A stretch of DNA of 64,000 bases from Candidatus Omnitrophota bacterium (lineage in GTDB: Bacteria; Omnitrophota; Gorgyraeia; Duberdicusellales; 4484-171), in the NCBI GenBank assembly GCA_021735655.1, contig JAIPGM010000005.1, positions 1 to 64,000 on the forward strand, read 5' to 3'. Positions 12,706 through 41,402 of the stretch are shown one piece after another. The position numbers and the translations under genes are program-made. A model generated the notes under the pieces. It was not told where the DNA came from, made no database searches, and worked only from the letters and a program-made list of their open reading frames with translations. The number at the start of each line of letters is the position of its first letter. Positions within the stretch are counted from its first letter, which is position 1.

Positions 12706-14151
12706 CTAAGTAACCGATAAGTTACTTTCTCCGATTAAATACTTATCAATATAATGAGCACAACGCCTGCCTTCAGAAATAGCCCAAACAACCAGTGACT
12801 GGCCACGTCGCATATCTCCGGCCGAAAAAACTTTATCAACCGATGTCATATATTTATTATCGGTTTTTACATTTCCCTGCTTGTCAAGTTTAACTTTAAG
12901 ATCGCTAAGTAAGCCAGCATGTTCCGGATGTAAAAACCCTATAGCCAAAATAACTATATCAACCTCAATCTCAAAATCACTCCCGAGAATATCTTGCATA
13001 ACCGGGCAACTCTTGCCATCAGCTGCAACAAATTCTACCCTTTTACAGCAAATTTTCTTTAAGCGACCACCCTTGCCAACAAATTGCTTTGTCAAAACAG
13101 CCCATTGACGTTGACCACCCTCCTGATGACTTGAGGTCGTCTTTAAAAGTAAAGGATAATTCGGCCAAGGATAATCTTTACTACGGCACCGTAAAGGCTT
13201 CGGCATGACTTCTATCTGGACAACCCTAGCTGCCGACTGACGATGAGCAGTCCCTAAACAATCAGCCCCGGTATCGCCTCCGCCGATAACAACAACTCTT
13301 TTACCAGAGACATCAATAATTTGATCCTCTGGAATACTCTCACCGGAAAGCCTTCTGTTGACTTGGGTTAAATAGTCCATAGCGTAATAAATACCCTTAA
13401 GTTCCCTGCCCTTTATTTTAAGATCTCTTGGAACGCGTGAGCCTCCGGCTAAACAAATAGCATCAAATTCAGTTGTCAGTTTTTCAACCGAATAATCTCT
13501 TCCTACATCAACACCGGTCTTAAAAACAACCCCTTCCTCTTTCCAAATATTGATACGCCGATCGATTATAGACTTTTCAAGTTTAAAATCAGGTATACCA
13601 TAACGAAGAATTCCTCCCGGTTGATTGTCGCGCTCAAAAATAACTACCCTGTGTCCGGCCCGGTTTAGTTGAGTTGCCACAGTTAAACCAGCTGGGCCTG
13701 AACCAACAACCGCTACTTTTTTGCCAGTCCGCTCGCCTACAGTGATCGGTTTAATTATCCCGGCTCTAAAACCAAATTCACTAACAGCCAGCTCATTTTC
13801 AGCAATAGTAACAGCATCACTATTCAAAGCTAACACGCAAGCATGCTCGCAAATAGCCGGACAAATTCTACCAGTTATTTCTGGAAGATTGTTGGTCGCT
13901 TCTAATAACTTAACTGCTTCTTCCCAATTGCCCTTAAACATATAATCATTCCACTCCGGGATATAGTTTCCTATCGGACAGGCCCAATGACAAAAAGGCG
14001 TACCACAATCCATGCAACGTGATGCCTGCTCCTGCGACTGCTCATCGGGTCGCAGATAGCGAACTTCTTTAAAATCCTGAATTCGCTCATCGACCTGACG
14101 ATACTTACCCTCTTTTCTTGATGCCTTCAGAAAACCTCTTAAATCACCCAT
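12706..14151 (-). CDS. gltD: Glutamate synthase (NADPH) small subunit.
   Basis: Cys cluster CMDCGTPFC...CP and the VAVVGSGPAGL FAD/NAD motif. Start taken at the ATG (MGDLRG) preceded by GGAG. An alternative TTG start at 14172 is possible. Overlaps the gltB stop. Confidence 0.9.
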   Translation of the reverse strand: MGDLRGFLKASRKEGKYRQVDERIQDFKEVRYLRPDEQSQEQASRCMDCGTPFCHWACPIGNYIPEWNDYMFKGNWEEAVKLLEATNNLPEITGRICPAICEHACVLALNSDAVTIAENELAVSEFGFRAGIIKPITVGERTGKKVAVVGSGPAGLTVATQLNRAGHRVVIFERDNQPGGILRYGIPDFKLEKSIIDRRINIWKEEGVVFKTGVDVGRDYSVEKLTTEFDAICLAGGSRVPRDLKIKGRELKGIYYAMDYLTQVNRRLSGESIPEDQIIDVSGKRVVVIGGGDTGADCLGTAHRQSAARVVQIEVMPKPLRCRSKDYPWPNYPLLLKTTSSHQEGGQRQWAVLTKQFVGKGGRLKKICCKRVEFVAADGKSCPVMQDILGSDFEIEVDIVILAIGFLHPEHAGLLSDLKVKLDKQGNVKTDNKYMTSVDKVFSAGDMRRGQSLVVWAISEGRRCAHYIDKYLIGESNLSVT

Positions 14152-18676: not shown

Positions 18677-18897
18677 TAACTCCTCCAGTCTTTAACACGA
18701 ATGCCCAGCCTTTTAATCTTTGAATGAAGAGTGTTTCTATTAAGGCCTAAAATCTTTGCCGCCTGAAGCTTATTGCCATCAACACGAGCTAAAACTGACT
18801 CAATCAAAGGTTTTTCAATGGCCTCGATGACCATTCGGTAAACTTCACCATCTTTAGCTTTAAAAAAAATATCATCAAATTCTACCATTTTTTTCAT
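18676..18897 (-). CDS. Small Fis/NtrC-C-terminal-type HTH DNA-binding protein.
   Basis: 73 aa. The C-terminus LQAAKILGLNRNTLHSKIKRLGI is a Fis-family HTH_8 motif. Its stop overlaps the gltB start, suggesting translational coupling. Confidence 0.65.
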   Translation of the reverse strand: MKKMVEFDDIFFKAKDGEVYRMVIEAIEKPLIESVLARVDGNKLQAAKILGLNRNTLHSKIKRLGIRVKDWRS

Positions 18898-18904
18898 CCC
18901 CTAC

Positions 18905-18945
18905 CAAAAAATAAAAATAAATTATTTTGCCTATATTTTAGGCAA
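18905..18945 (-). terminator. Terminator-like AT-rich hairpin plus U-run between the GATase1 gene and the Fis-HTH/gltB start.
   Basis: Minus strand: UUGCCUAAAAUAUAGGCAA followed by a U-rich tract, ending about 8 nt before the RBS GGTAGGGG of the Fis-like gene. Confidence 0.45.
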
Positions 18946-18961
18946 GCCTGGTCAAAATTTT

Positions 18962-19690
18962 TTAGACAACCAAATTTGCTTTTCTTTCAGAAATAATACG
19001 GGAAAAATTTAAGTAAAGCATCTTTGCCTGATAAATATATTTTTCCTGACAATTAAAATAATCAAACAATAATTTAGTCCTATCAATATCGGCAGAGTAA
19101 TGTTGACACCAACCTTTTAACATCTCAAGATTCATCTCCGGATGAAACTGTACCCCCCAAGCACAAGGGGAAAAACGCACCGCCTGATTTCTGCAAGCTC
19201 TTCCCTCAGCTAAAAGTTTAGCTTCCTTCGGTAATTCAAAGGTATCTTCATGCCATTGGAACACATCAAGCCTTTCGTCTAAACCCCTAAATAATCTGTC
19301 GGCTTGAGCCTCCTCTGTTAAAGAAACTTTAGACCAACCAATTTCCTTATTTTCACACCTTGTAACCTTAGCTCCTAGGGCTTTAGCGATAAGTTGTGCT
19401 CCCAAACATATCCCGAGAACCGGAATTTCCTCCCTAATCAGATACCTTAAAAACTCCTCTTCAACTTCAAGAAAAGGAAACTCCCTCTTCTGGTAGACAT
19501 TCATCGGCCCGCCAAAAACAACCACTCCTTCAATCTGAGAAATATTTTTAATTAGCGAGCCATCTTTAAACTCAAGAAATTGTTTAGGCTGACTTATATC
19601 CAAAATGCGAGTATCCCACTTAGTGCTTTCCAGGAACTTTCCAAAAGTCCCTGGACCTTCCAAACCTAAATGCTGTATAAAAATAATCAT
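18962..19690 (-). CDS. Class I glutamine amidotransferase (GATase1-like, GMP-synthase/PuuD-like).
   Basis: 242 aa with catalytic triad context GICLGAQL ... FHPE. Five-nucleotide gap after glnA. Confidence 0.8.
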   Translation of the reverse strand: MIIFIQHLGLEGPGTFGKFLESTKWDTRILDISQPKQFLEFKDGSLIKNISQIEGVVVFGGPMNVYQKREFPFLEVEEEFLRYLIREEIPVLGICLGAQLIAKALGAKVTRCENKEIGWSKVSLTEEAQADRLFRGLDERLDVFQWHEDTFELPKEAKLLAEGRACRNQAVRFSPCAWGVQFHPEMNLEMLKGWCQHYSADIDRTKLLFDYFNCQEKYIYQAKMLYLNFSRIISERKANLVV

Positions 19691-19695
19691 TCTTT

Positions 19696-21027
19696 TTACA
19701 AAATTGAAAGATACTTATCCAATTCATATTGAGGAACTTGGATTTTATAATTATCCCACTCCTTCTTCTTTAACTCCACAAACCTGGGAAAAATATGTTC
19801 ACCGAGCACCTTTTTAACCAATTCACTCTCTTCGGTTATTGAAACTGCATGTCCCAAGCTATCCGGAAGAGTCTCAATGCCTTGATCTTTTCGCTCGGAA
19901 TCGCTAAGATGATACAAATTTTTCTCCATCGGATTAGGCACCTTATAGCCTTTTTCAATGCCTTCAAGCCCGGCATGAAGCATTGCTGCAAAGGTAAGAT
20001 AAGGGTTACATGCTGGATCGGCAGCCCGAAATTCACAACGAGTAGCCTTTTCTTGACCAGGATGGTACAAAGGAACTCTAACCAAGGCGCTTCGATTCCT
20101 ACGACTCCAAGCAATATAAACCGGAGCCTCATAACCAGGAACCAACCGCTTGTAAGAATTAGTAGTTTGAGCAAATATTGAACAAATTTCCTTGGAATGC
20201 TTAAGAAGTCCGGCTATATAGCTGTGACCAACCCCAGAAAGAAAATCTTCAGCCTTAGGATCAAAAAAGGCGTTCTTTTCGCCTTTAAACAGTGATTGAT
20301 GAACATGCATACCAGAACCATTTTCGCCAAATAAGGGTTTAGGCATAAAAGTAGCGTAAACTCCGAATTTGCTAGCGATTTCTTTTACTACCACTCGATA
20401 AGTTATTACATCATCAGCCATCTTTAATGCATCTTGATAACGCATGTCTACTTCATGTTGAGACGGTGCTACTTCATGATGTGAATACTCAACATGAATT
20501 CCCATTTTCTCTAAAGCCAACACTGTTTCTCTTCGTAGATCACTAGCAACATCAAGAGTGGTTAGATCAAAATAACCCCCTTTATCCAAAGTTTCAGTAT
20601 TATTTTCGCTTTTGAAATAAAAGAACTCTAGTTCGGGACCTAGATAGAAATGGTCAAATCCCATTTTTTTAGCCCGCTCCAAGGCTCTTTTTAAAACATA
20701 GCGCGGATCGCCAACATATGGCGTACGATCAGGATTAAGCACGTCACAAATCATTCGAGCAACTGCCTTTTCCCTCGGCCGCCAAGGCAATATTGCAAAA
20801 GTTTCCGGATCAGGCATAGCAATCATATCTGATTCTTCAATGTCCTGATAACCGGTAATCGAAGAGCCATCAAAACCCATACCATTTTCTAAAGCTCCCT
20901 CTAATTCATTATCGGTTATCGAAAAACTCTTTACCTGCCCTAGAATATCAGTAAACCATAAACGAATAAACTTAACATCATTCTCCTTAACCAGTTTTAA
21001 AATATCCTGCTTTGTTTTCTTAGCCAT
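19696..21027 (-). CDS. glnA: Glutamine synthetase type I (I-alpha-like, 443 aa).
   Basis: Canonical GS-I motifs (DGSS, KPLFGENGSGMHVHQSL, NPYLTFAAML). RBS cggagg before the ATG. Confidence 0.95.
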   Translation of the reverse strand: MAKKTKQDILKLVKENDVKFIRLWFTDILGQVKSFSITDNELEGALENGMGFDGSSITGYQDIEESDMIAMPDPETFAILPWRPREKAVARMICDVLNPDRTPYVGDPRYVLKRALERAKKMGFDHFYLGPELEFFYFKSENNTETLDKGGYFDLTTLDVASDLRRETVLALEKMGIHVEYSHHEVAPSQHEVDMRYQDALKMADDVITYRVVVKEIASKFGVYATFMPKPLFGENGSGMHVHQSLFKGEKNAFFDPKAEDFLSGVGHSYIAGLLKHSKEICSIFAQTTNSYKRLVPGYEAPVYIAWSRRNRSALVRVPLYHPGQEKATRCEFRAADPACNPYLTFAAMLHAGLEGIEKGYKVPNPMEKNLYHLSDSERKDQGIETLPDSLGHAVSITEESELVKKVLGEHIFPRFVELKKKEWDNYKIQVPQYELDKYLSIL

Positions 21028-21052
21028 CTTACACCTCCGTTTTGTTTATGCT

Positions 21053-21098
21053 CCTAAAAATAAAAATGGTGTCTTAAGCCCTAAGGCTTTAAAACACC
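21053..21098 (-). terminator. Intrinsic-terminator-like hairpin plus U-run between glnB and glnA, ending ~25 nt before the glnA start codon.
   Basis: Minus strand: GGUGUUUUAAAGCCUUAGGGCUUAAGACACC followed by AUUUUUAUUUUU, then RBS GGAGG and ATG. Two further hairpins sit upstream (21119-21133, 21140-21155). Confidence 0.55.
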
Positions 21099-21228
21099 AT
21101 TGTTTTGAAAGCTTTTTTGCACAAACTTTGTGCTTTTTTGGCTGAAATTTCAGCCCTCAATATATATAAGTAAAAAAATGGGTCTTTTGGTAACCTTTTT
21201 TTTAAAATTTTTTCCTGGCCCATAAAAT

Positions 21229-21570
21229 TTACCCTATAGCATCACTTCCTCGCTCTCCGGTCCTTATTCTAATGCACTCCGGTAAATCTAATACAAATAT
21301 CTTGCCATCACCGATTGTACCGGTTTTAGCCCCTTTAATTATCGCTTTAACCGTAGGTTCGACAAAATCCTTATTTACGGCTATTTCAAGACGCACTTTT
21401 TTTAAAAGATTAACCTCATGGATGACGCCCCTATAGGTTTCGGTGTAGCCTTTCTGCTGACCACAACCTAAAGCATTAGAAACAGTCATCTTGTGAACAT
21501 CGGCATCAAAGAGAGCCTGTTTAACATCTGATAATTTATGCGGCTGAATCATTGCAATTACTAACTTCAT
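21229..21570 (-). CDS. glnB: PII nitrogen regulatory protein.
   Basis: 113 aa GlnB/GlnK fold ([13 protein letters not shown]..., T-loop [12 protein letters not shown]). His replaces the Tyr51 uridylylation site. 14-nt gap after amt. Confidence 0.9.
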
Positions 21571-21584
21571 GGTTTACCTCCCTG

Positions 21585-22931
21585 TTATTTAGTAGTAAAT
21601 ATTTCAAATCCAGAATAAGTCTCCATGCCATGCTGGGTGATATCTAAACCCTTTAACTCTTCTTCCCTGGATACTCTCAAGCCGATAAACCGGTCAATCA
21701 GCTTAAACACGGTAAACATCACAACTGACACAAAACTGACGACGGCTAAAACACCCAAAGCCTGAACGCCTAACTGAGCAATACCACCGCCATGAATCAA
21801 ACCATCGCGGGCTAAACCCAATGATTTATGGCCAAAAATACCAACAGCTAAAGTACCCCAAACACCATTCATCATATGTACCGGAACCGCTCCCACCGGA
21901 TCATCAACTCTAATCTTATCAAGAAAAACAGTGCCGACAACCACAATAATACCGCCGATAGCTCCAATAATCATAGCCTCTAAAGGAGTTACAAAGGCAC
22001 AAGGCGCAGTTATCGCCACCAAACCGGCTAAAGCTCCGTTCATAGTCATAGTTAAATCCGGCTTGCCAAACTTTTTCCAGTTAAAAAACATAGCCGATAA
22101 AGCTCCCGCAACTGCAGCCATATTAGTAGTAACAGCAACATGAGCTATTTGACTGCCATCGCCAACACTCAAAGTTGAACCGGGATTAAAACCAAACCAA
22201 GCAAACCATAAAATTAAGGTCCCCAACGATGCTAAAGTCATAGAATGCCCCTCAATAGCATTGGCTGATCCATCTTTATTGAACTTACCAATACGCGGCC
22301 TCAATACAATTGTCCCCATAAGGGCTGCTGTGCCGCCTACAGCGTGAACTACGCTCGATCCGGCAAAATCGGCAAAATTTAAATTACTGAGCCAACCGCC
22401 GCCCCAAATCCAATGGCCAATTATCGGATAAACTGTGGCTGAAATTAAAAATGAATATATAAGATACGCTTTAAACTTCATTCTTTCGGCTACACCACCA
22501 GCAACTATAGTTGCTGCGGCTCCGCAGAATACAGCGTGAAAAAACCAAGCCGCATAGAGAGGCAAATGTCCATCATGAGCGGCATTAACCATAAACCAAC
22601 CCTTAAAGCCCATAAAACCATTTCCGGCGCCAAACATTATGGCATAACCAAATATGAAAAATCCCACAGAAGCCATACAAAAATCTAAAAAGTTATTCAT
22701 CAACACATTACAAGTATTTTTAGCCCTAATTAACCCCGCTTCCAACATACCAAATCCAGCCTGCATGATAAAAACCATGAAGGCTGCAATCATAACCCAA
22801 AGAGTATCAATTCCAGCTACCGTAGCGTAAGCCGTATTCTCATCGGCAAAAACCGACCCTAAAGCCACGGAACTAATTACTCCTAAAAATAATACCGCCG
22901 AAACTAACTTTTTAATTTTTTTTATCTTCAT
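21585..22931 (-). CDS. amt: Ammonium transporter (Amt family), copy 1.
   Basis: 448 aa with signal peptide and 11 TM helices. Amt signatures; 60-70 % similar to copy 2. Confidence 0.92.
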   Translation of the reverse strand: MKIKKIKKLVSAVLFLGVISSVALGSVFADENTAYATVAGIDTLWVMIAAFMVFIMQAGFGMLEAGLIRAKNTCNVLMNNFLDFCMASVGFFIFGYAIMFGAGNGFMGFKGWFMVNAAHDGHLPLYAAWFFHAVFCGAAATIVAGGVAERMKFKAYLIYSFLISATVYPIIGHWIWGGGWLSNLNFADFAGSSVVHAVGGTAALMGTIVLRPRIGKFNKDGSANAIEGHSMTLASLGTLILWFAWFGFNPGSTLSVGDGSQIAHVAVTTNMAAVAGALSAMFFNWKKFGKPDLTMTMNGALAGLVAITAPCAFVTPLEAMIIGAIGGIIVVVGTVFLDKIRVDDPVGAVPVHMMNGVWGTLAVGIFGHKSLGLARDGLIHGGGIAQLGVQALGVLAVVSFVSVVMFTVFKLIDRFIGLRVSREEELKGLDITQHGMETYSGFEIFTTK

Positions 22932-22982
22932 CTACGTCCCCCCTTTTTTATTCGTACCGAATGGAACTTATTTTGTTTTTAT

Positions 22983-24329
22983 TTATTGAGTAGTAAAAAT
23001 TTGAAACCCTGAGTATGCTTCCATACCATGCTCATCGATATCTAAACCTTTTAACTCTTCTTCTTTGGATACTCTTAAGCCTATAGTAGCTTTAACTATT
23101 TTAAAAAGGATCAAAGCTGTACCAAACACCCAAGCAAACACCGACACAACACCAATTAGCTGAGTAATAAATTGGCCTATACCCCCACCAAAAAATAAAC
23201 CATCAACTCCACCATAAGATTTTTGGGCAAATAATCCTGCAGACAGTGTCCCCCAAGCGCCACACACACCATGAACCGATACGGCGCCGACCGGATCATC
23301 GATATGAAGCACCTTGTCTATAAATTCAACACTCAACACAACAAGAATGCCGCCGATAGCGCCAATTATGATTGCGCTTAAGGGTGAAACGTTAGCACAA
23401 GGAGCAGTTATCGCTACCAATCCAGCAAGTGCACCATTTAAAGCCATGCTAGTATCCGGCTTACCAAATCTTATCCAAGCCGTAAACATAGCTGCAGTAG
23501 CTCCGGCTGCAGCTGCTAAATTTGTAGTTACCGCAATTACAGCAATACTTAAATCTGTCCCCGCAGTTGTGCTTCCGGCATTAAATCCAAACCATCCAAA
23601 CCAAAGAATAAACACACCCAAAGCTGCCAAAGGGATACTATGACCAGGAATAGCATTTGATGAACCATCTTTATTATATTTGCCAAGTCTAGGGCCAAGC
23701 ATCATTGCTCCGGCTAAAGCTGCCCAACCGCCGACCGAATGAACCACAGTTGAACCAGCAAAGTCAATCATTCCCTTAGCTGATAACCAGCCACCACCCC
23801 AAATCCAATGTCCGGCAACCGGATAAATTATGGCCGTAATAAAAACACTGTACCAAAGATAACCGCTGAACTTTGTTCTTTCAGCCATAGCTCCGGAAAC
23901 TATTGTGGCCGCGGTAGCGGCAAACACTACTTGAAACATCCAAAAAGCAAATTGCCACAAACCATCAGCAGTAGCCGGATTAGCTGCACTCAAAAAAAAT
24001 CCGTCTTTGCCAAAAAGGCCAAAAGTACTGGTTCCAAACATTATGCCAAAGCCAACAGCCCAATAGGTAATTGAACCAACTGAAAAATCCATAAGGTTCT
24101 TCATCATAATGTTACAAGCATTTTTGGCCCGGGTAAAACCGGTCTCAACCATGGCAAAGCCGGCTTGCATAAAAAATACCAAGAATGCTGCGACCAAAAC
24201 CCATACTGTATCAATAGAAACAGCGTTGCTGGCTGAAGTTGCCTCCTCAGCAAAAGCCGAGAAGCTCAACCCCAATAGCACAATACCGATACTAAACATT
24301 AATGATAATTTTTTTAGTTTTATTAACAT
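22983..24329 (-). CDS. amt: Ammonium transporter (Amt family), copy 2.
   Basis: 448 aa with signal peptide, an Amt-family paralog, in tandem with copy 1. Confidence 0.92.
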   Translation of the reverse strand: MLIKLKKLSLMFSIGIVLLGLSFSAFAEEATSASNAVSIDTVWVLVAAFLVFFMQAGFAMVETGFTRAKNACNIMMKNLMDFSVGSITYWAVGFGIMFGTSTFGLFGKDGFFLSAANPATADGLWQFAFWMFQVVFAATAATIVSGAMAERTKFSGYLWYSVFITAIIYPVAGHWIWGGGWLSAKGMIDFAGSTVVHSVGGWAALAGAMMLGPRLGKYNKDGSSNAIPGHSIPLAALGVFILWFGWFGFNAGSTTAGTDLSIAVIAVTTNLAAAAGATAAMFTAWIRFGKPDTSMALNGALAGLVAITAPCANVSPLSAIIIGAIGGILVVLSVEFIDKVLHIDDPVGAVSVHGVCGAWGTLSAGLFAQKSYGGVDGLFFGGGIGQFITQLIGVVSVFAWVFGTALILFKIVKATIGLRVSKEEELKGLDIDEHGMEAYSGFQIFTTQ

Positions 24330-24344
24330 AAGGATACCTCTCTC

Positions 24345-25136
24345 TTAGAATCCGTAGCTAACTTCAAAACCACCCCATAATTCTTCATCACCATTATTAA
24401 TCTCTTCTTCATGATTAATCGTATAGTGCAAACTAGGAGTTAGACTGAAACCACCCAAAGCATAAGAAGTTGATAATGAAAGTTCAGTCGCATAAAGCGA
24501 GCTAGGTTCAAGATCGGCAACTCCGTCATTGCCCCAGTTAACTACTCCTAAGGCAAGAGTTTGTCCTTCTTGAATTAAAGAATGCTTCAGAAGCGGGAGT
24601 TCAGCATCAAAACCCCAAGAATAATACCAACCCTCATCAGGACCACCGGATTTGGCTTGAAAATCATAGCCGGCAAAAAAGCTTGCTGAAACGTCAATTG
24701 GAAGAAAAGGTATTTTATTCAAGGTTCCGGAAAGCCAAGACTCAGAAACATCAGCCGTGCTGGCTGTATTAGGAAAGTCAAAGTAAGTATATCCGGTTGA
24801 AAAATTAAATTGATCATCGAATAGATCTCGAGAAAAAGTTACAGTATAATCAAGCTCTTCGCCGTCTTCATGCCCACTATTCATCGGAAATGATCCCCAG
24901 ACATTGAATGAAAGGTCAACCCCATCGATAAGCCCAGGAAATCCAATATCAATACTCGGCTGGTGTGCTCCATCATTATCGCTATAGAGATCTTGCCCAC
25001 GCCAGATATATCTAGAAACATAAGTATCAGTTACGGTAACCTCAACCGGCTGGCCAGCAAACTCAAAAGCATAAATATCCCCTAAAAAAATAACACTAAA
25101 TATTATATTCATTAACCAAACTGATATTTTTTTCAT
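24345..25136 (-). CDS. Putative outer-membrane beta-barrel protein (porin-like), first gene of the amt operon.
   Basis: Signal peptide, alternating amphipathic beta-strand pattern, aromatic-rich, C-terminal ...SYGF. 15-nt gap to amt. Confidence 0.6.
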   Translation of the reverse strand: MKKISVWLMNIIFSVIFLGDIYAFEFAGQPVEVTVTDTYVSRYIWRGQDLYSDNDGAHQPSIDIGFPGLIDGVDLSFNVWGSFPMNSGHEDGEELDYTVTFSRDLFDDQFNFSTGYTYFDFPNTASTADVSESWLSGTLNKIPFLPIDVSASFFAGYDFQAKSGGPDEGWYYSWGFDAELPLLKHSLIQEGQTLALGVVNWGNDGVADLEPSSLYATELSLSTSYALGGFSLTPSLHYTINHEEEINNGDEELWGGFEVSYGF

Positions 25137-25149
25137 AATTTTCTCCCTT

Positions 25150-25200
25150 AAAAATAAAAAAGCGCATTATTCCAAATATCCACCTTTGGAATAACACGCC
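25150..25200 (-). terminator. Intrinsic-terminator-like hairpin plus U-run in the 5' leader immediately upstream of the OMP-amt operon RBS.
   Basis: On the minus strand: GCGUGUUAUUCCAAA-(loop)-UUUGGAAUAAUGCGC (~14 bp stem) followed by UUUUUUAUUUUU, then the RBS AAGGGAG and ATG. There is no room for a promoter between the terminator and the start. Confidence 0.6.
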
Positions 25201-25245
25201 TTTGTGTTTTTACTTAACCTCTACAATCAATTAAGTAAAAAAACT

Positions 25246-25758
25246 CTATCTTTGGTAACCTTTATTTTTCCATTTTTGAACTATTTTCTTTTTATGCTTA
25301 ATAATCATAACATGAGAACAATCAAGCTCTTTGGCTATTTCACGAACAGTATATCCTTTCAACAAATAAGACAAAACCGATTTATCCTTATCAGTTAAAC
25401 CTAAACTATTAATTTCATCAATCGTAAGATTATGATCTATATTTGGTATAAAGTCGGCTTTTTCATCCTTAAGAATATCGCCCAAGGTTTGTCCATTAGG
25501 AGAAATTAACTTATCCAAGCTTGAAATATTCGCCTTAGGCCTACCTTTTCTTAAGAAATTCTGTAGATGAAACTCACAGCCCTTAATTACATAGGCTTGA
25601 TTAATGCCGATCGGCAACCCATTAGAATAATTTTCCCAAAGATAAAGACACATCTCTTGGTATAGATCTTCCTCACTATAAAAACCACGCAGCAAATGCT
25701 TGCGTGCAACAAATCTTAAGCTGGGAGTTATTTTTTCTAATAATATCCTAAAGTCCAT
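25246..25758 (-). CDS. Small sigma-70-family (ECF-like) sigma factor or sigma-like regulator.
   Basis: 170 aa. Region-2-like DLYQEMCLYLWENY. Region-4 HTH LLKGYTVREIAKELDCSHVMIIKHKKKI. Confidence 0.6.
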   Translation of the reverse strand: MDFRILLEKITPSLRFVARKHLLRGFYSEEDLYQEMCLYLWENYSNGLPIGINQAYVIKGCEFHLQNFLRKGRPKANISSLDKLISPNGQTLGDILKDEKADFIPNIDHNLTIDEINSLGLTDKDKSVLSYLLKGYTVREIAKELDCSHVMIIKHKKKIVQKWKNKGYQR

Positions 25759-25777
25759 AAACTTTACCCCTGAAAGT

Positions 25778-25818
25778 CAAAAAGCCCCCATTAGACTTCT
25801 TATTGTCTAGTGAGGGCT
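25778..25818 (-). terminator. Terminator/attenuator-like hairpin in the leader of the sigma-like gene.
   Basis: On the minus strand: AGCCCUCACUAGAC-(loop)-GUCUAAUGGGGGCU (13/14 pairs) followed by UUUUUG. It lies 20 nt upstream of the RBS and downstream of a candidate extended -10. Confidence 0.55.
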
Positions 25819-25848
25819 TCTTTGCCAAAATTAACTTCTTTGTTATTA

Positions 25849-25884
25849 ATTTATACCATGTAAAGTAAAAATCTATTTGTCAAG
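25849..25884 (-). promoter_or_regulatory. Candidate promoter: TTGACA-like -35 and extended -10 TGgTATAAAT on the minus strand, upstream of the leader hairpin.
   Basis: cttgacaa ... catggtataaat read on the minus strand. The 22-nt spacer is non-canonical, so the call rests on the extended -10. Confidence 0.3.
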
Positions 25885-27228
<1,344 letters not shown>

Positions 27229-27323
27229 TTAACTTTTACCAATAAATACTATAACTAACTAGAACAAATGCTCCAAGGGTATGATCCATCTTCCATCTTT
27301 ACTAAATCTTTCCATAAAGTTCT

Positions 27324-28721
27324 CTACCATTTACCTGTTTCTAAATACTGATCAATTGCCAAAGCAGCGGCTTTTCCAGCCCCCATAGCTAAGATTACCG
27401 TAGCTGCACCAGTAGCAATATCTCCTCCGGCAAAAACCCCTTTTTTGCTGGTTTTGCCGGTGTCAGTATCGACTACGATATTTCCCTTTCTTCCTATTTC
27501 AAGACCACTAGTTGTAGAAGGAATCAAGGGATTCGGGCTATTGCCAATAGCTACAACCACTAAATCTACCGGAAGCTTAAAATTTGAGCCCTCGATCGGA
27601 ACTGGACGCCGGCGACCTGAAGTATCCGGTTCACCCAAATCCATTCGCAAACATTCCATATCTTTTACCCAACCTTTTTCATCAGCATGATAGGCAATCG
27701 GCAGGGTTAGAAACTCAAAGATTACTCCTTCTTCTTCGGCATGATGGATCTCTTCTTCTCTAGCCGGCATCTCCTTACGTGAGCGCCGATAGATAATCCT
27801 AGCTTCTTCTGCACCTAAGCGAAGGGCGGTTCTTACTGAATCCATAGCTACATTACCACCACCAATCACAGCAACGTGTTTTCCTTTTATGATTGGAGTA
27901 TCATATTCAGGAAACTTATAGGCCTTCATTAAATTTACTCGAGTTAAATACTCATTGGCCGAATATATACCGTTAGAGTTTTCACCGGGTAAGTCCATAA
28001 ACCAAGGTAAACCAGCCCCGCTACCGATAAATACCGCATCAAATTCATTTAATAGCTCATCTACAGTTTCAAGTTTTCCAACCACAAAGGAAGTTACTAC
28101 TTCCACCCCTAAAGACTTTATATATTCAACCTCTCGTTCAACTACCTTTTTCGGTAAACGAAACTCAGGAATCCCATATATTAACACCCCGCCCATCTTA
28201 TGCAGGGCTTCAAATATTTTTACCTTATGCCCTAATTTAGCTAACTCGCCAGCCACAGTAAGCCCGGCTGGGCCGCCGCCAACTACAGCTACCTTTTTAC
28301 CGGAAGAAGCAACTTTTCTAGGAGCTTCTCGGTTGGTTTGCTCTGCCTCCCAATCAGCGATAAACCGCTCTAGGCGGCCGATACCTACTGGTTCGCCCAT
28401 TTTAGATAATATACAAACCTTCTGGCACTGCTCCTCCTGAGGACAAACTCTACCGCAGATTGCTGGAAGACTATTAGTTTCCTTCATCTTCTTTATTGAG
28501 CCCTTTAAATCTCCCTTAGCAATTAAATCGATAAAGCCGGGGATATCGATACCCACCGGACAACCATCTATACATAAGGGTTTTTTACATTGTAAACAAC
28601 GCTTAGCTTCGCAAATAGCTTCATCAAGCGAATAACCATAAGGCACTTCTTTAAAGTTATTTCTTCGCTCGGACGGATCCTGTTCGCGCATTGGTACCAT
28701 TTTAGGGTCAGGTTTATTCAT
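27324..28721 (-). CDS. GltD-like NAD(P)H oxidoreductase subunit: NfnB / SudA-type (GOGAT small-subunit homolog).
   Basis: 465 aa with Cys clusters CLQCKKPLCIDGCP and CGRVCP, and VAVVGGGPAGL. Paired with a PyrK-like subunit. A genuine gltBD is present elsewhere in the window, so NfnAB is more likely than GOGAT. Confidence 0.75.
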   Translation of the reverse strand: MNKPDPKMVPMREQDPSERRNNFKEVPYGYSLDEAICEAKRCLQCKKPLCIDGCPVGIDIPGFIDLIAKGDLKGSIKKMKETNSLPAICGRVCPQEEQCQKVCILSKMGEPVGIGRLERFIADWEAEQTNREAPRKVASSGKKVAVVGGGPAGLTVAGELAKLGHKVKIFEALHKMGGVLIYGIPEFRLPKKVVEREVEYIKSLGVEVVTSFVVGKLETVDELLNEFDAVFIGSGAGLPWFMDLPGENSNGIYSANEYLTRVNLMKAYKFPEYDTPIIKGKHVAVIGGGNVAMDSVRTALRLGAEEARIIYRRSRKEMPAREEEIHHAEEEGVIFEFLTLPIAYHADEKGWVKDMECLRMDLGEPDTSGRRRPVPIEGSNFKLPVDLVVVAIGNSPNPLIPSTTSGLEIGRKGNIVVDTDTGKTSKKGVFAGGDIATGAATVILAMGAGKAAALAIDQYLETGKW

Positions 28722-29547
28722 TGTTAATTTGCTTATTTAATTTGCACATTGACTTATCCTCATGCTGCAAAAATCTCTTCTGCCTGGTCATCAACTCATT
28801 AAAATCTACCTTGTGTCCGTCAAAGTCCGGGCCATCAACACAGGTAAACTTAGTTTTATTATTAACCGTAACTCGACAGCCACCGCACATACCAGTTCCG
28901 TCAATCATAATTGCATTAAGACAAACTATAGTTTCTATCTTGTATCCTCTAGTTAAATCAGAAACCGCCTTCATCATTACAACTGGCCCAACACAAAATA
29001 CCAAACCCCAGTCTGAACTTTCACTAAGCAAGCGCTTTAAAGGATCGATTACCAGGCCTTTTTCACCAAGTGAGCCATCATCAGTAGTAATATAAAGCTG
29101 GTCTGAAAACTCCTTAACCTGATCGCGCAAGATCACTAACTTTTCAGTGCGGCCGCCTAAAATTGAGCTTATCTCACACCCAGCTTTTTTAAAAGCCTTA
29201 ACTACCGGCAAAAGCTCAGCAATACCTACACCGCCACCGACAACAATAACCTTTCCATAATTCTTAATCTCTGTGGGTTTGCCTAAGGGTCCGACTAAAG
29301 AATAAAGTGAATCTCCAACTGCTAGTTTACCAAGCAACTTAGTAGTGTAGCCTACCTCTTGAAAAATAATTGTAATCAACCCTTTTTCTTTATCGACATC
29401 AACAATAGTCAAAGGAATACGTTCACCAGCCTCATTAACCATCAACACAACAAACTGACCGGGTAATGCCTTTTTGGCAATAAGCGGTGATTGGATAACA
29501 AACTTGGTTAAATCTTTAGCAATCGACTCTTTAACGATAATTTTCAC
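28714..29547 (-). CDS. PyrK/ferredoxin-NADP reductase-like FAD/[2Fe-2S] subunit (NfnA / SudB-type).
   Basis: 277 aa. FAD/NAD-binding fold and C-terminal CGGC...C cluster. Eight-nucleotide overlap with the GltD-like gene. Confidence 0.75.
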   Translation of the reverse strand: MKIIVKESIAKDLTKFVIQSPLIAKKALPGQFVVLMVNEAGERIPLTIVDVDKEKGLITIIFQEVGYTTKLLGKLAVGDSLYSLVGPLGKPTEIKNYGKVIVVGGGVGIAELLPVVKAFKKAGCEISSILGGRTEKLVILRDQVKEFSDQLYITTDDGSLGEKGLVIDPLKRLLSESSDWGLVFCVGPVVMMKAVSDLTRGYKIETIVCLNAIMIDGTGMCGGCRVTVNNKTKFTCVDGPDFDGHKVDFNELMTRQKRFLQHEDKSMCKLNKQINNE

Positions 29548-29639
29548 TCTTGTCTCCCCTTACCCTTACATTCTGTCAATTTTTCAAAAATAGCACAGAA
29601 AATAAAAAAACGCCTTTTCTTTGCGCTGCTGTGCAAAAA

Positions 29640-29672
29640 AAAGACGTCCTTGTCTCCTGTATAAATATACCA
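29640..29672 (-). promoter_or_regulatory. Candidate sigma70-like promoter (TTGACA-16-TATATT) upstream of the nfnA-nfnB-gdhA unit.
   Basis: Minus strand: cacTTGACAattcgatttagattggTATATTtatac, about 100 nt upstream of the nfnA start, followed by a structured leader. Confidence 0.4.
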
Positions 29673-29698
29673 ATCTAAATCGAATTGTCAAGTGATTT

Positions 29699-30400
29699 TC
29701 AGTCTTTTTTTATTTCTTGAGCTAAGATAACTGCCTCAGCAATTTCCTTCATCGAAACCCGCTTGTCCATACTTATCTTTCTTATTAAAGCATAGGCTTT
29801 ATCTTCGGTTAATTTTTGCTGATTCATCAAAATGCCTTTGGCCCGCTCGATCTTTTTACGGGCCTGAAGCTCTTCCTGAACTATCTGAGTCTTAACCATT
29901 AACTCCGTATTCTCAATAGCAACTGCGGCCTGATTAGCCACAGTACTGAGAAGCTTAATGTCGCCTTTGGTGAACTTATACTCTGTAGTCGTATAGCAGT
30001 TAATAACTCCGACTGCTCTTCGCTTAACCATCATCGGCACACTAAGCATTGAAACCAACCCTAGCAATTTAGCCAGCTTTTTTTCTTTATAGCTCTTATC
30101 TTTGGAAACATCTAAAATAGTTATCGGTTTTTTGTCATGAGCAACCAGACCGACTATACCTTCGCCTATCTTTAAACTCCGCTCCTTTAAATATTCGCTA
30201 TTTAAAGCCTGGGTAGCTCTTATTTTTAACTCTTTTTTCTTATCATCTAAAAGCCATAAAGCACAAATCTTGGCCTTCATTACATTAGCAGTTAAAGTTA
30301 CTATCAACTTCAATACGTCTTCCAAATATAAATCAGAAGTAATAGCAATGCTAATTTTACTTAAAGTATCGATGTAAGCTTTGTAAGAAGTTTTTGGCAT
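29699..30400 (-). CDS. GAF-ANTAR RNA-binding antitermination regulator.
   Basis: 233 aa. N-terminal GAF-like domain. The C-terminus (ELQARKKIERAKGILMNQQKLTEDKAYALIRKISMDKRVSMKEIAEAVI) is a typical ANTAR coiled-coil/helical domain. Confidence 0.8.
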   Translation of the reverse strand: MPKTSYKAYIDTLSKISIAITSDLYLEDVLKLIVTLTANVMKAKICALWLLDDKKKELKIRATQALNSEYLKERSLKIGEGIVGLVAHDKKPITILDVSKDKSYKEKKLAKLLGLVSMLSVPMMVKRRAVGVINCYTTTEYKFTKGDIKLLSTVANQAAVAIENTELMVKTQIVQEELQARKKIERAKGILMNQQKLTEDKAYALIRKISMDKRVSMKEIAEAVILAQEIKKD

Positions 30401-38884: not shown

Positions 38885-40216
38885 TTATCTACGTATCCTC
38901 AAATTCTTAGGAAGAGTGACTGTAAAAGTTGTCCCTTTGTTAATTTCAGAATCAACGAAGGTCTCTCCTCCGTGCATCTCAACAATATCCTTAACGATCG
39001 ATAAGCCCAAGCCGCTACCTTTAACTTTATCCTTAGAATACCCTTCGATTCTTTTGAATCGATCAAAAATTTTGTCTAAATCTTGCTTCGGCATACCAAT
39101 GCCAGTATCAGAAACGATAATCTTTACATTTTTTTCAGTATCTTCAAGTTTCAGGTTAATCTTACCCTTTGGTTTGTTATATTTTATAGCATTGTCGATA
39201 AAGTTTGAGATAACTTCATAAAGCTTATCTTCGTCCCCCCAAATTTCTATTTTTCTATTTGGCAAAGAAATCTTGATGTCGACTTCCTTTTTTTGGGCCA
39301 GCGGCCTAAGGGTTGCTACTGCTAATTCAGCTATCCTTCCTATATCAAAAAGGGTTCTTTTCATCTCCCTAGTTTCAGCATCTACTTTTGAAAAATCTAG
39401 CAAATCATCAATTAGGCGACTTAGACGACTAATGCTTTGAACCGCCAAGCTTAAAAGTTTTTTCTGCTGGCTATTAATATTTCCAGCTATTTCCTCTAGA
39501 ATAATCCCTACCGATTCTTTAATTGCCGTCAAGGGCGTGCGTAACTCATGAGATACATTAGCAATAAAATTGGCCCTTAGGTCATCTAAATGCTTTGTGT
39601 CTTCTCTGAGACGAGAATTAGTGACCGCTAAGGCAGCTAAATCGGCTAACTTGCTTAAAATATCAAGGTCTTCTTCATTGAAAACACCTTTAGAAATTTT
39701 ATTGTTAACATTTATCACCCCAATAACCTTATCTTGTATTTTTAAAGGAACGCTTAATAAAGAATTGGTATTATACTTCCCGTTACGTTTAGAAAAGCGC
39801 GGATCTTTGCTGATATCTTTAACTAATAAAGACTGCCCAGTTTGGGCAACCCAACCAGAAACGCCTTCACCTAGCTTAACTTTTACGTTCTTAATAATCT
39901 CTTTATCTAGACCTTTAGCAAACTTGATTAGCATCTCGCCGGTATTTTTTCCAACCAACATAAGTGAAACAATCCCAACTGACATTACATTAGCGATTCT
40001 ATCCACAAGCATATTAAGAGTTTTCTCTAAATTAAAATTACCGGATATTTCTTTACTAATATTATAAGCCATCGTTAATTTAAAAAGTTCTTTCTCTAAA
40101 AAATCTCGGTTTTCTTTACTTAAGCTACTCTTAAAATCTTTTAAATTAACTAAAGATTTAGTAACCTCTGTTATCGACTTCTTGCGCTTAAACAAACGTG
40201 CGACCGTATTAATCAT
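38885..40216 (-). CDS. GAF-domain sensor histidine kinase.
   Basis: GAF domain, HisKA (VSHELRTPL), HATPase_c (GSGLGLSIV). Confidence 0.85.
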   Translation of the reverse strand: MINTVARLFKRKKSITEVTKSLVNLKDFKSSLSKENRDFLEKELFKLTMAYNISKEISGNFNLEKTLNMLVDRIANVMSVGIVSLMLVGKNTGEMLIKFAKGLDKEIIKNVKVKLGEGVSGWVAQTGQSLLVKDISKDPRFSKRNGKYNTNSLLSVPLKIQDKVIGVINVNNKISKGVFNEEDLDILSKLADLAALAVTNSRLREDTKHLDDLRANFIANVSHELRTPLTAIKESVGIILEEIAGNINSQQKKLLSLAVQSISRLSRLIDDLLDFSKVDAETREMKRTLFDIGRIAELAVATLRPLAQKKEVDIKISLPNRKIEIWGDEDKLYEVISNFIDNAIKYNKPKGKINLKLEDTEKNVKIIVSDTGIGMPKQDLDKIFDRFKRIEGYSKDKVKGSGLGLSIVKDIVEMHGGETFVDSEINKGTTFTVTLPKNLRIRR

Positions 40217-40587
40217 GCTTGTTCTCCAGTCAACTCTTTAATCTTATCTAGTAAAACCTTAGGCTCAAAAGGCTTAACTATATAAGCATCAGCCCCAACT
40301 TCTTGCCCCATTTTCTTATCACTATCTTGAGCCCGGGCCGTAAAAAGAATAATCGGTATGCTTTTATACTTTTCATCAAATTTAAGCATTCGGCAGACTT
40401 TATAACCATCAACCTTAGGAAGCATTAAGTCTAAAATAATTAAATCCGGATTACTCTTCTTTGCTTTGTCCAACGCCTCCTGGCCATCATAAGCAAATAG
40501 AACATCATAACCGCTAGCTTCTAGCCTCATCTTTAACATCTCAACCAACGCTGCTTCATCGTCAACTACGAGTATTTTTTTTGCCAT
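40213..40587 (-). CDS. Single-domain response regulator (CheY-like REC).
   Basis: MAKKILVVDDE..., D...D...K receiver motifs. Start chosen at the ATG preceded by AAAGGGGAGAG. The longer ORF to 40638 would overlap the upstream REC gene. Confidence 0.8.
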   Translation of the reverse strand: MAKKILVVDDEAALVEMLKMRLEASGYDVLFAYDGQEALDKAKKSNPDLIILDLMLPKVDGYKVCRMLKFDEKYKSIPIILFTARAQDSDKKMGQEVGADAYIVKPFEPKVLLDKIKELTGEQA

Positions 40588-40628
40588 CTTGCTCTCCCCT
40601 TTTAAATCCTGATAAATTAACTTTTGTT

Positions 40629-41009
40629 TTATTGACAATACTTATCTGCTACGCTTAAAACCTTATTTATATTTTTAACCTCTTGGGACAAATCTCCAGT
40701 TTTAACAATAAACCCCGAAGCACCCATATCTTTTGCTTTATCGAAAAGTTTCTGATCAGAATAAGCAGTTATAATGAATATCGGTAAATGCTTATCATGT
40801 TTTCTGATTTTTTTTAAGGTGTCTAGACCATTAAGCTTAGGCATTAATATATCAAGTAATACCACGTCCAGCCTTTCATTCTTTATCTTCTCTAAACCCT
40901 CCTTGCCATCAGAAGCAGTGATAACTTCATAATTATTCTCTTTTAGCCTCTGGCTAATCAGATCTAAAAAATCTGGTTCATCGTCCACAACCAATATCTT
41001 TTTTTTCAT
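40629..41009 (-). CDS. Single-domain response regulator (REC).
   Basis: MKKKILVVDDEPDF... receiver domain, 126 aa. Confidence 0.85.
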   Translation of the reverse strand: MKKKILVVDDEPDFLDLISQRLKENNYEVITASDGKEGLEKIKNERLDVVLLDILMPKLNGLDTLKKIRKHDKHLPIFIITAYSDQKLFDKAKDMGASGFIVKTGDLSQEVKNINKVLSVADKYCQ

Positions 41010-41030
41010 CGAACACCTCGCTTTTGATTC

Positions 41031-41402
41031 CTAATCATCTTTCTTAATTTTCTTTAAAATACTTTCTATTTCTTCTTTAATATTACCATCTTTAACGATA
41101 AACCCGGTTGCCCCTGCTCTTTTAGCCTCTTCTTTTCGATTCTCGGTGGAAAAAGATGTCAACATAAATACTGGCAACTTCTTATGTTTATTTCTTATTA
41201 TCTCTAAAGCCGACATTCCGTCAAGTACCGGCATCAATATATCTAAAAAGACTATGTCAGGACTATCACTCTCTACCTTCTCTACTCCTTTCTGACCATT
41301 AACAGCGCTACATATCTCACAATTATTAGCCTCTAATCTAACTTTCATTATCTCCACGAAAACCGGATCATCATCAACAAGTAAAACTTTAAGTTTAGGC
41401 AT
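41031..41402 (-). CDS. Single-domain response regulator (REC).
   Basis: MPKLKVLLVDDDPVF... receiver domain, 123 aa. Confidence 0.85.
   Translation of the reverse strand: MPKLKVLLVDDDPVFVEIMKVRLEANNCEICSAVNGQKGVEKVESDSPDIVFLDILMPVLDGMSALEIIRNKHKKLPVFMLTSFSTENRKEEAKRAGATGFIVKDGNIKEEIESILKKIKKDD

Follow-up and report, generated by a model that had tools for sequence, protein, structure and literature searches.

A candidate GAF-ANTAR antiterminator for nitrogen-assimilation genes in an Omnitrophota lineage

A contig of a Candidatus Omnitrophota bacterium (JAIPGM010000005.1, of which positions 1 to 64,000 were analysed, hereafter the window) encodes a GAF-ANTAR protein close to a cluster of nitrogen-assimilation genes, which raises the question of whether this protein controls the cluster and, if so, whether it acts on the leader RNAs of its genes. 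Nearly all genes of the window, and the nitrogen cluster in its entirety, are on the minus strand. The domains of the protein, the RNA elements found 3' of its gene and their recurrence in related genomes together suggest that the open reading frame (ORF) encodes a signal-responsive one-component transcription antiterminator of the ANTAR family, and the nitrogen-assimilation regulator of this Omnitrophota lineage; we put the probability of this reading at roughly 0.7.

The ANTAR domain of the candidate regulator (PF03861) spans residues 175-225 and profile positions 4-54 of 54 (E 1.3e-19; score 70.2 bits, cutoff 27.3), and its GAF domain (PF13185/PF01590) spans residues 26-163 (E 1e-19). The one-component GAF-ANTAR architecture proposed in a preliminary description of this DNA is thus borne out by Pfam matches to both domains at E values of about 1e-19. 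A linker of about 10-20 residues (ELMVKTQIVQEELQARKK) joins the two. With phmmer, the ANTAR domain was matched to EutV (6wsh), Rv1626 (1s8n) and NasR (4akk), the similarity to NasR having an E value of 1e-7. Eight residues contact RNA in EutV (PMC8934654), namely K143, K147, Y164, R168, M172, N173, R175 and R177, and the alignment places K, R, Y, R, M, D, R and S at these positions. Six of the eight are retained, five as identities (K143, Y164, R168, M172 and R175) and one as a conservative change (K147 to R); the D in place of N173 is also present in Rv1626 and NasR. Public annotation of an identical protein, from a Candidatus Omnitrophica metagenome-assembled genome (MAG), reads solely 'ANTAR domain-containing protein'.

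The best NCBIfam matches of the GAF domain were the N-terminal regions of PtsP (EI-Ntr; 69.5 bits) and NifA (55.9 bits), with the next family at 31 bits, scores that are to be read knowing that both models are full-length equivalogs, whose cutoffs are out of reach for one domain. Among structures in the PDB, it matched the GAF domains of PtsP (3ci6 and 3trc, E 1e-15 to 7e-14) and, for NifA, Aquifex Nlh1 (4g3k). NifA reportedly responds to 2-oxoglutarate (Little & Dixon 2003), and the same is said of EI-Ntr (Lee et al. 2013). EI-Ntr's GAF domain binds glutamine (PMC4848567). A direct input of glutamine or 2-oxoglutarate is our best guess for the candidate regulator, and homology suggests that the GAF domain would read nitrogen status in such a way that low glutamine or high 2-oxoglutarate leads to RNA binding.

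If the protein is an antiterminator, its targets should be recognizable, and the clearest of them lies in the leader of a gene for a sigma-like protein (Table 1). This canonical element consists of two hexaloop hairpins with A1 and G4, P1 and P2, separated by a 5-nucleotide (nt) linker; an intrinsic terminator overlaps P2 and takes its 5' arm from the P2 loop and 3' arm. The leaders of the nfnA-like gene, of the porin/amt genes and of glnA each contain a single A1/G4 hexaloop overlapping the base of a terminator. These targets are near-identical to those published for eutP, eutS, nasF and GnfR, the published seeds being, for eutP, P1 ACAC[AAUGGC]GUGU and P2 GGC[AAAGGA]GCC and, for eutS, GAGC[AAAGAA]GCUC (PMC3369931 Fig. 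S1). The covariance-model search for dual hexaloops that the preliminary description had called for, in four leaders, retrieved the sigma-gene leader, where the element overlaps the terminator 5' arm as anticipated; the other leaders proved to have single hairpins, and the GATase-Fis spacer none.

The hexaloop hairpins are weak (0 to -4.8 kcal/mol) as opposed to the terminators that they overlap (-20 to -23 kcal/mol), which is the design that would be expected of a protein-stabilised antiterminator. Upstream of the glnA-leader hexaloop there is a hairpin with a 7-nt loop, possibly a degenerate P1, and the related loci L007 and L018 have GCAC[ATAGAT]GTGC hexaloops at the homologous position. 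Possible second hairpins, of 3 bp at best, are found in the nfnA leader (TGC[ACAGCA]GCG, 29635-29624, weak) and in the porin leader (TCC[AAAGGT]GGA, 25190-25179); second hairpins of this kind, in the apical part of the terminator, occur in the window and a few loci, are not conserved and are not claimed here. No P1 hairpin was found 5' of the nfnA-leader hairpin, which the promoter directly adjoins. In the window, an ANTAR-type hairpin is missing from the GATase-Fis/gltB spacer, leaving gltB here with no recognizable ANTAR element, whereas the gltB leaders of other genomes do have one.

Several other matches in the window were discarded or given little weight. A loosely written regular expression, describing two hexaloop hairpins with A1 and G4, matched 23 times on the minus strand, mostly in coding sequence, and is unspecific alone; it became useful once an intergenic position, a terminator and recurrence among related loci were required as well. 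A covariance match at 19014-19044 (E 0.035) was rejected as a site, being located within the 3' end of the GATase ORF with no overlapping terminator, and two other weak matches were seen at 21083-21107 (one hairpin) and 29621-29657 (E 8). A stretch of about 30 nt (AAAGGCGAAAAGAACGCCTTTT) in both glutamine synthetase paralogs (1081-1111, plus strand, and 20262-20289, minus strand) produces false dual-hexaloop matches in coding sequence, and probably encodes a conserved glutamine synthetase peptide.

The terminators were identified by folding and consensus scans. A stringent scan of the whole window for clean, strong, intergenic terminators on the coding strand found only three in 64 kb, at 29611, 25161 and 21066, with the sigma-leader terminator falling below the filter owing to its shorter T run. 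That such a scan finds by itself three of the four leader sites indicates that these terminators are peculiar to this cluster and no general feature of operon ends. Terminator-like structures had previously been placed in the sigma-gene leader and in the glnB-glnA and GATase-Fis spacers, and the first two hold, but the GATase-Fis structure is weak, a local hairpin of 7 bp whose T run is interrupted, in an 81-nt segment with an overall folding energy of -12.9 kcal/mol. The terminator assigned to the spacer between the outer-membrane protein gene and amt is real but lies in the sigma-to-porin spacer, the 15-nt porin-amt spacer having none. The leader directly 3' of the candidate regulator, where a promoter matching the consensus at 11 of 12 positions precedes the terminator at 29651-29606, is the strongest case and was missing from the earlier list.

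All strong leader terminators have their T run 17-50 nt ahead of the start codon, an interval that holds the ribosome-binding site (RBS) and no promoter-like site, in agreement with the earlier claim that they abut the RBS of the next gene and leave no room for a promoter. The leader promoters are instead placed 5' of the terminators. The arrangement argues against these structures being ordinary end-of-operon terminators, with each gene transcribed from a promoter of its own and the GAF-ANTAR protein regulating something else, or nothing nearby. Such an explanation would account for the facts that every structure comes after a stop codon, that an A-tract followed by G is natural at the start of a terminator and that the GATase-Fis hairpin resembles a plain weak terminator. 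However, it would have promoters downstream and not upstream of the terminators, and more than an RBS in the 17-50 nt after the T runs; moreover, other operon ends in the window lack such terminators, and the overlap of dual hexaloop and terminator is kept in 33 of 36 related leaders (see below). We consider it very improbable.

Not every spacer of the cluster carries an element. Neither a terminator nor a hexaloop was found in the gdh leader of the window (27323-27214), a leader in which relatives L082 and L084 have one, and the amt-amt (51 nt), porin-amt and amt-glnB (14 nt) spacers have no elements. An Rfam scan of the whole window at the gathering threshold returned no match, not even for the textbook dual-hexaloop element, and so could not serve to test for ANTAR targets. 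This result also bears on the idea of purely cis-acting control, by riboswitches or by ribosome-mediated (leader-peptide) attenuators that would respond directly to a nitrogen metabolite and need no regulatory protein. Glutamine riboswitches and attenuators do precede nitrogen genes in other phyla, but no Rfam family reaches its gathering score here, an aptamer would need more length and complexity than the leaders offer, given the 50-70 nt or so between start site and T run, a leader ORF is absent from them, and their conserved part is exactly the ANTAR hexaloop consensus; we regard this explanation as scarcely credible.

We compared the locus with 80 related loci fetched from other genomes, almost all of them Omnitrophota and from many different MAGs, which were chosen for carrying the regulator. 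The regulator is 63-92% identical in all 80, and the top 120 of its 5,839 homologues are 74-92% identical to it. Mapping of the window proteins onto the loci indicated that its gene typically lies 0-100 nt after a glnA paralog or a type-III glnN, and that it is typically followed by genes for the sigma-like protein, porin, Amt, PII, GATase and GltB, or by gdh or carAB. A regular-expression pass revealed a recurring element, xAC[AAAGAA]GTT, 3-8 nt, GGC[AAAGAA]GCC, 29 copies of which, with P1-P2 linkers of 3-8 nt, served as seed for the covariance model. Searched against both strands of the 80 loci (1.06 Mb), the model gave 52 matches at E<=1, all of them on the strand of the regulator. Among the 36 best matches, 24 are 20-230 nt past the stop codon of the regulator, and for 27 a nitrogen gene was identified no more than 700 nt downstream, coding for the sigma-like protein (8), GlnA (6), porin (3), GltB (3), Gdh (2) or PII (2), and also for Amt, CarA and NfnA. 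The terminator begins inside the 3' arm of P2 in 33 of the 36, even though terminator stems differ widely among loci.

About 20 of the related leaders have the promoter TTGACA-N17-TGnTATAAA ending 5 nt before P1, which implies that the transcript starts with the recruitment hairpin; in the window, the promoter of the sigma-gene leader has a non-canonical -35 spacing of 22 nt. In genomes where elements lie 5' of glnA-GAF-ANTAR operons, positive autoregulation is implied. The sigma-gene leaders of L082 (15790-16034) and L083 (15080-15343) contain tandem attenuators, in which a dual hexaloop with its terminator is followed by a GGC[ATTGAT]GCC hairpin and a second terminator. The window leader (25884-25759) has one element, which looks as if the first P1-P2 had been joined to the second terminator.

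Single hexaloops were sought in the related loci as hairpins that pair, through their loop and 3' arm, with a downstream arm preceding a T run. They amount to a class of their own, with 56 cases on the plus strand versus 5 on the minus strand and the consensus (A/G)GGAC[AAAGGC]GTCC(T). As a control for loop length, 4-bp fold-back extensions were counted over all plus-strand terminator 5' arms, giving 64 for 6-nt loops but 10-31 where the loop had 3-5 or 7-9 nt; there was no preference on the minus strand. The genes under single hexaloops are gdh (9), glnA, those of PII and GATase, nfnA, gltB, carA and glnN-GAF-ANTAR. In close relatives (L082, L083, L084 and L002; 86-92% identity), the glnA leader reads TAGAAC[AAGGGT]GTTCTA where the window has AAAAC/GTTTT, a compensatory change. 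In L082 and L083, the hairpin of the porin leader does not vary while the top of the terminator diverges. The nfnA-leader loop has G1 in three relatives (AGAC[GAAGGC]GTCT) and the canonical form, AGGAC[AAAGGC]GTTCT, in the fourth.

The gene under the dual-hexaloop leader suggests a second tier of control. Its 170-residue product scores 37.0 bits against the NCBIfam sigma70-ECF model TIGR02937 (E 2.5e-9, residues 3-165), below the cutoff of 42.9, and Pfam sees only a GerE helix-turn-helix (HTH) in it, for which reason the name 'ECF-like' is used here and membership in the extracytoplasmic function (ECF) family is not assigned. A two-block motif, GGTTACC-N16-TTTACTT, stands 5' of the porin/amt and glnA leaders, and recurs in L006, L007, L015, L018, L019, L059, L062 and others in the general form (A/G)GTTACC-N16-TTTACTTGTA. 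Exact GGTTAC-N17-TACTT sites number 11 in the 206 kb that contain the sigma-like gene (13 loci and the window) versus none in the 920 kb that do not; by our own arithmetic, and with sites distributed at random by length, the chance of all 11 falling in this 18% of the sequence is about 1e-8. These sites always come after the sigma-like gene or that of PII, and always before a hexaloop hairpin and a terminator. Their two-block, fixed-spacer form fits a promoter, suggesting that the motif is a candidate -35/-10 promoter of the sigma-like protein. A cascade is thereby plausible in which the regulator would act on the sigma leader, and the sigma factor on the amt and glnA operons, to be gated again by their attenuators.

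Developed in full, the circuit would work as follows. By default it would be off, as sequence and energetics indicate, since transcripts from the strong promoters would meet a terminator of -20 to -23 kcal/mol within about 60-90 nt, just before the RBS. By analogy with the family, a dimer of the active GAF-ANTAR protein would bind the weak A1/G4 hexaloop hairpins that hold the first nucleotides of the terminator 5' arm, and with the hairpin kept folded and the terminator blocked, RNA polymerase would read through. Sites would be of two grades, the sigma leader offering P1 for recruitment and P2 for antitermination, and the nfnA-like, porin/amt and glnA leaders a single hexaloop fused to the terminator. 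The ECF-like sigma factor, released by the dual-hexaloop leader, would drive the GGTTACC-N16-TTTACTT promoters of porin-amt-amt-glnB and of glnA, as co-occurrence suggests, and with sigma tier and attenuators meeting in the same leaders, the outcome would be a feed-forward loop. A more far-reaching form we hold only tentatively, and think rather doubtful as a whole: Omnitrophota would have a three-tier, RNA-centred circuit for general nitrogen control, without a described counterpart in other phyla, in which the GAF-ANTAR protein directly senses glutamine or 2-oxoglutarate and antiterminates the sigma leader, the sigma factor fires the GGTTACC promoters, and single hexaloops gate the resulting transcripts a second time, as they also gate those of gdh, nfnAB, carAB and glnN, in a coherent feed-forward loop.

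The same observations could be distributed otherwise, with the ECF-like sigma/LuxR-type protein, or a nearby GAF histidine kinase and its receivers, as the true nitrogen regulator, the GAF-ANTAR protein acting on the dual leader only and the single hexaloops being protein-independent or controlled in some other manner. The strict co-occurrence of GGTTACC-N16-TTTACTT with the sigma-like gene would fit, as would the variation at loop position 1 of the nfnA leader, the requirement of EutV for both hairpins (PMC8934654) and the presence of genes for a GAF-HisKA kinase and receivers (REC) directly 5' of the regulator in L082 and L083. Nevertheless, the single hairpins share the closing pair and loop consensus of known ANTAR hairpins and show an enrichment specific to hexaloops, they occur 5' of nitrogen genes and of the glnN-GAF-ANTAR operon even in loci with no sigma-like gene, and one hexaloop is the minimal ANTAR binding site (PMC8934654). 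We judge this alternative unlikely. The kinase of the window (GAF-HisKA-HATPase, 38885-41402, minus strand) has small ORFs adjoining it and a GAF domain 33% identical to that of the regulator. In L082 (8144-9937) and L083 (7849-9927), the kinase gene and one or two REC-only genes are directly 5' of the GAF-ANTAR gene; in the window and L084, an 8.4-kb cluster resembling those of type IV pili and type II secretion systems (pilB, pilC, pseudopilins, pilMN and pilO) lies between kinase and regulator.

Several points weigh against regarding the GAF-ANTAR protein as antiterminator of the whole cluster. The case is built throughout on sequence and comparative inference. GDH and the glutamine synthetase-glutamate synthase pathway (GS-GOGAT) usually respond in opposite ways to nitrogen supply, and yet gdh/nfnAB and GS-GOGAT/amt carry the same leader type. 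The dual motif occurs in a single leader of the window, the nfnA, porin/amt and glnA leaders having one hexaloop each, and the loop GAAGGC in the nfnA leader of the closest relatives could turn into a tetraloop on closing. Some of the A1/G4 pattern is automatic, given that an A-tract followed by a G/C stem is a by-product of terminators. All loci were preselected for the regulator, so that the association of motif and regulator is one seen among loci that carry both or the regulator alone. The model alignment is 99% paired, with compensatory changes at 4 of 6 pairs, but these figures are biased and merit little weight, as the seed expression enforced pairing and A1/G4 and the alignment was fitted to the model. 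The ligand is inferred from an identity of about 30% to PtsP GAF domains. Lastly, EutV antitermination needs both hairpins (PMC3369931, PMC8934654), which tells against function of the single-hexaloop leaders. On the other side, the smallest unit that an ANTAR dimer binds is one hexaloop having G4 and a stem of 3 bp or more (PMC8934654), and Walshe et al. 2022 raised the question of whether single hexaloops are functional sites.

By its sequence features, the putative mechanism is of the ANTAR antitermination class, as in EutV, NasR, AmiR, NasT and GnfR. EutV/EutW of Enterococcus faecalis, a REC-ANTAR system acting on eut leaders, shares with the candidate regulator the ANTAR output with its conserved RNA-contact residues (PMC8934654), and its targets are alike in P1 (xAC[AAxGxx]GUx), P2 (GGC[AAAGxx]GCC) and the overlap of P2 with an intrinsic terminator (PMC3369931, PMC8934654); unlike it, EutV has a phosphorylated receiver as input and serves ethanolamine use, in place of a GAF domain, ammonium assimilation and mostly one hexaloop per leader. 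NasR of Klebsiella oxytoca (NIT-ANTAR, nasF) likewise combines sensor and ANTAR domain in one chain, with a nitrogen theme, and its nasF antitermination hairpin (P2), GGAU[AAAGGC]GUCC, differs little from the single-hairpin class described here, but its NIT domain senses nitrate/nitrite and it serves one nitrate-assimilation operon, as opposed to a GAF domain and a general nitrogen regulon of several operons. GnfK/GnfR of Geobacter sulfurreducens (REC-ANTAR; nif, glnK and amtB leaders) provides a precedent for ANTAR antitermination of general nitrogen genes within a cascade, and the site bound by GnfR in experiments, CAGGCAANGGCGCC, corresponds to GGC[AAnGGC]GCC, the P2 consensus found here (PMC2995071). 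In contrast, GnfR is part of a two-component system under the sigma-54/GnfLM master system, whereas here a one-component GAF protein is found, sigma-70-type promoters precede the leaders, and the ECF-like sigma factor lies downstream, not upstream, of the antiterminator. PtsP (EI-Ntr) and NifA, which provide the best matches to the sensor domain and respond to metabolites of nitrogen status (glutamine in EI-Ntr, PMC4848567), differ in output, which is a PEP-phosphotransferase or a sigma-54 AAA+ activator and not an RNA-binding ANTAR domain.

The preliminary description had also called the wiring undescribed, which goes too far for the link itself. ANTAR elements 5' of the genes for PII, Amt, GlnA and glutamate synthase were predicted in Firmicutes and Deltaproteobacteria in 2012, and GnfR was tested (PMC3369931, PMC2995071). 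The closest parallels are the predicted regulons of Desulfotomaculum and Pelobacter (Ramesh et al. 2012), with many dual-hairpin and terminator elements 5' of genes for PII, Amt, glutamine synthetase and glutamate synthase in one genome (PMC3369931), although these are in other phyla, their cognate ANTAR architecture is not GAF-defined, and neither a sigma tier nor a single-hexaloop class was described. The one-component ANTAR proteins that have been studied are NasR and PAL only (PMC7496416, PMC12591593), and in the searchable literature we found nothing specific on a GAF-ANTAR nitrogen regulator or on nitrogen regulation in Omnitrophota. As far as that literature shows, GAF-ANTAR proteins are without a characterised member, and what appears to be new is the GAF sensor, the putative Omnitrophota-wide regulon, the abundance of single-hexaloop attenuators and the apparent sigma tier (PMC7496416, PMC12591593).

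Table 1. Genes and putative regulatory elements of the nitrogen cluster and its candidate regulator (window coordinates)
Feature	Position	Strand	Details
GAF-ANTAR one-component regulator gene	29699-30400	-	233 aa; Pfam GAF and ANTAR matches
nfnA-leader sigma-70-type promoter	29664-29691	-	TTGACA, 16 nt, TGgTATATT; 11/12 match, extended -10; kept in L082, L083, L084, L002
nfnA-leader hexaloop hairpin (A1, G4)	29639-29658	-	AGGAGAC[AAGGAC]GTCTTTT; -4.8 kcal/mol; loop and 3' arm form terminator 5' base
nfnA-leader intrinsic terminator	29596-29651	-	19-bp stem and T run, then RBS and GTG; -21.7 kcal/mol (29651-29606)
NfnA/PyrK-like FAD/FeS protein	29547-28714	-	Family match; GTG start at 29547
NfnB/GltD-like protein	28721-27324	-	Family match
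NADP-GDH (gdh)	27213-25885	-	Family match
Sigma-gene-leader sigma-70-type promoter	25850-25883	-	TTGACA ... TGgTATAAA; P1 begins 5 nt after -10
Canonical dual-hexaloop target	25815-25845	-	P1 TAAC[AAAGAA]GTTA, linker ATTTT, P2 GGC[AAAGAA]GCC; 45.3 bits, E 6e-10 (seed member of the covariance model, so not an independent score)
Sigma-leader intrinsic terminator	25779-25823	-	5' arm is P2 loop and P2 3' arm; -23.4 kcal/mol
ECF-like sigma/GerE-HTH protein	25246-25758	-	170 aa; first gene under dual-hexaloop leader; Pfam GerE
Promoter-like motif, 5' of porin/amt leader	25233-25260	-	GGTTACC-N16-TTTACTT
Porin-leader hexaloop hairpin	25193-25208	-	AACAC[AAAGGC]GTGTT, eutP P1 type; loop and 3' arm form terminator 5' base
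Terminator ahead of porin-amt-amt-glnB	25147-25203	-	-22.9 kcal/mol (25203-25158)
Putative porin	24345-25136	-	263 aa; no Pfam or NCBIfam match
Amt	24329-22983	-	Family match
Amt, second	22931-21585	-	Family match
PII (glnB)	21570-21229	-	Family match
Promoter-like motif, second copy, 5' of glnA leader	21168-21195	-	GGTTACC-N16-TTTACTT
glnA-leader upstream hairpin	21119-21133	-	GCAC[AAAGTTT]GTGC, 7-nt loop, A1 G4; possible degenerate P1
glnA-leader hexaloop hairpin	21091-21106	-	AAAAC[AATGGT]GTTTT; overlaps terminator base; 12.4 bits, weak
Terminator ahead of glnA-GATase	21051-21101	-	-20.0 kcal/mol (21101-21065)
GlnA	21027-19696	-	Family match
GATase, class-I	19690-18962	-	Family match
Weak hairpin ahead of Fis-like ORF/gltB	18905-18945	-	TTGCCTA-AAATA-TAGGCAA, interrupted T run; 7 bp, 18945-18927
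Fis-like ORF	18676-18897	-	73 aa; Fis/NtrC-C-terminal-type HTH_8, stand-alone
GltB	18676-14144	-	Family match
GltD	14172-12706	-	Family match
Putative regulon, nfnA-like through gltD (the 13 genes above)	12706-29547	-	Family matches for all but the porin

Other observations concern the genes of the cluster and its surroundings. The TAA stop of the Fis-like ORF overlaps the ATG of gltB (TAATG), which suggests translational coupling of this ORF to glutamate synthase. The 263-residue protein ends in ...FEVSYGF, is encoded directly 5' of amt in many loci and has a likely homolog in L073 with an apparent signal peptide; it is likely an outer-membrane porin, and a candidate for an ammonium-related one. 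Genes for a PPDK_N protein, CarA and CarB come 3' of gltD on the same strand, the first of them (10106-12694) encoding 862 residues whose sole domain is PPDK_N (PEP-utilising, ATP-binding). One of the two sizeable plus-strand ORFs of the window (142-1677) encodes a 511-residue glutamine synthetase (GS) with an N-terminal HTH_17 of the MerR/excisionase type, a GS-HTH fusion that is kept next to gdh in L084 (16388-17917). In relatives, icd (isocitrate dehydrogenase) is found between the nfnB-like gene and gdh (L082, 13070-14272; L084, 13574-14782), a place from which it is absent in the window, and an attenuated operon carrying icd would supply NADPH, 2-oxoglutarate and glutamate together; L083 and L084 also have, in this interval, an extra ORF of 163 codons. 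GC skew is negative in all 2-kb bins of the window (1-64000), with no switch and a cumulative value of -6.5, which together with the gene-strand bias places the window within one replichore of strong strand bias.

If our interpretation is true, it would extend the known link between ANTAR proteins and nitrogen without overturning it, the antitermination mechanism being already established. It would provide a candidate nitrogen regulator for an uncultured phylum, with cis-elements that can be read directly from metagenomes. The locus would also offer a first tractable GAF-ANTAR system, since a 233-residue protein, RNA targets of about 35 nt and candidate ligands lend themselves to easy work in vitro, and the single-hexaloop attenuators, roughly 45 in this analysis, are a natural test set for the question of Walshe et al. 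Should the three-tier circuit prove true, they would provide the first natural cases of a single-hexaloop ANTAR site shown to suffice for transcription antitermination.

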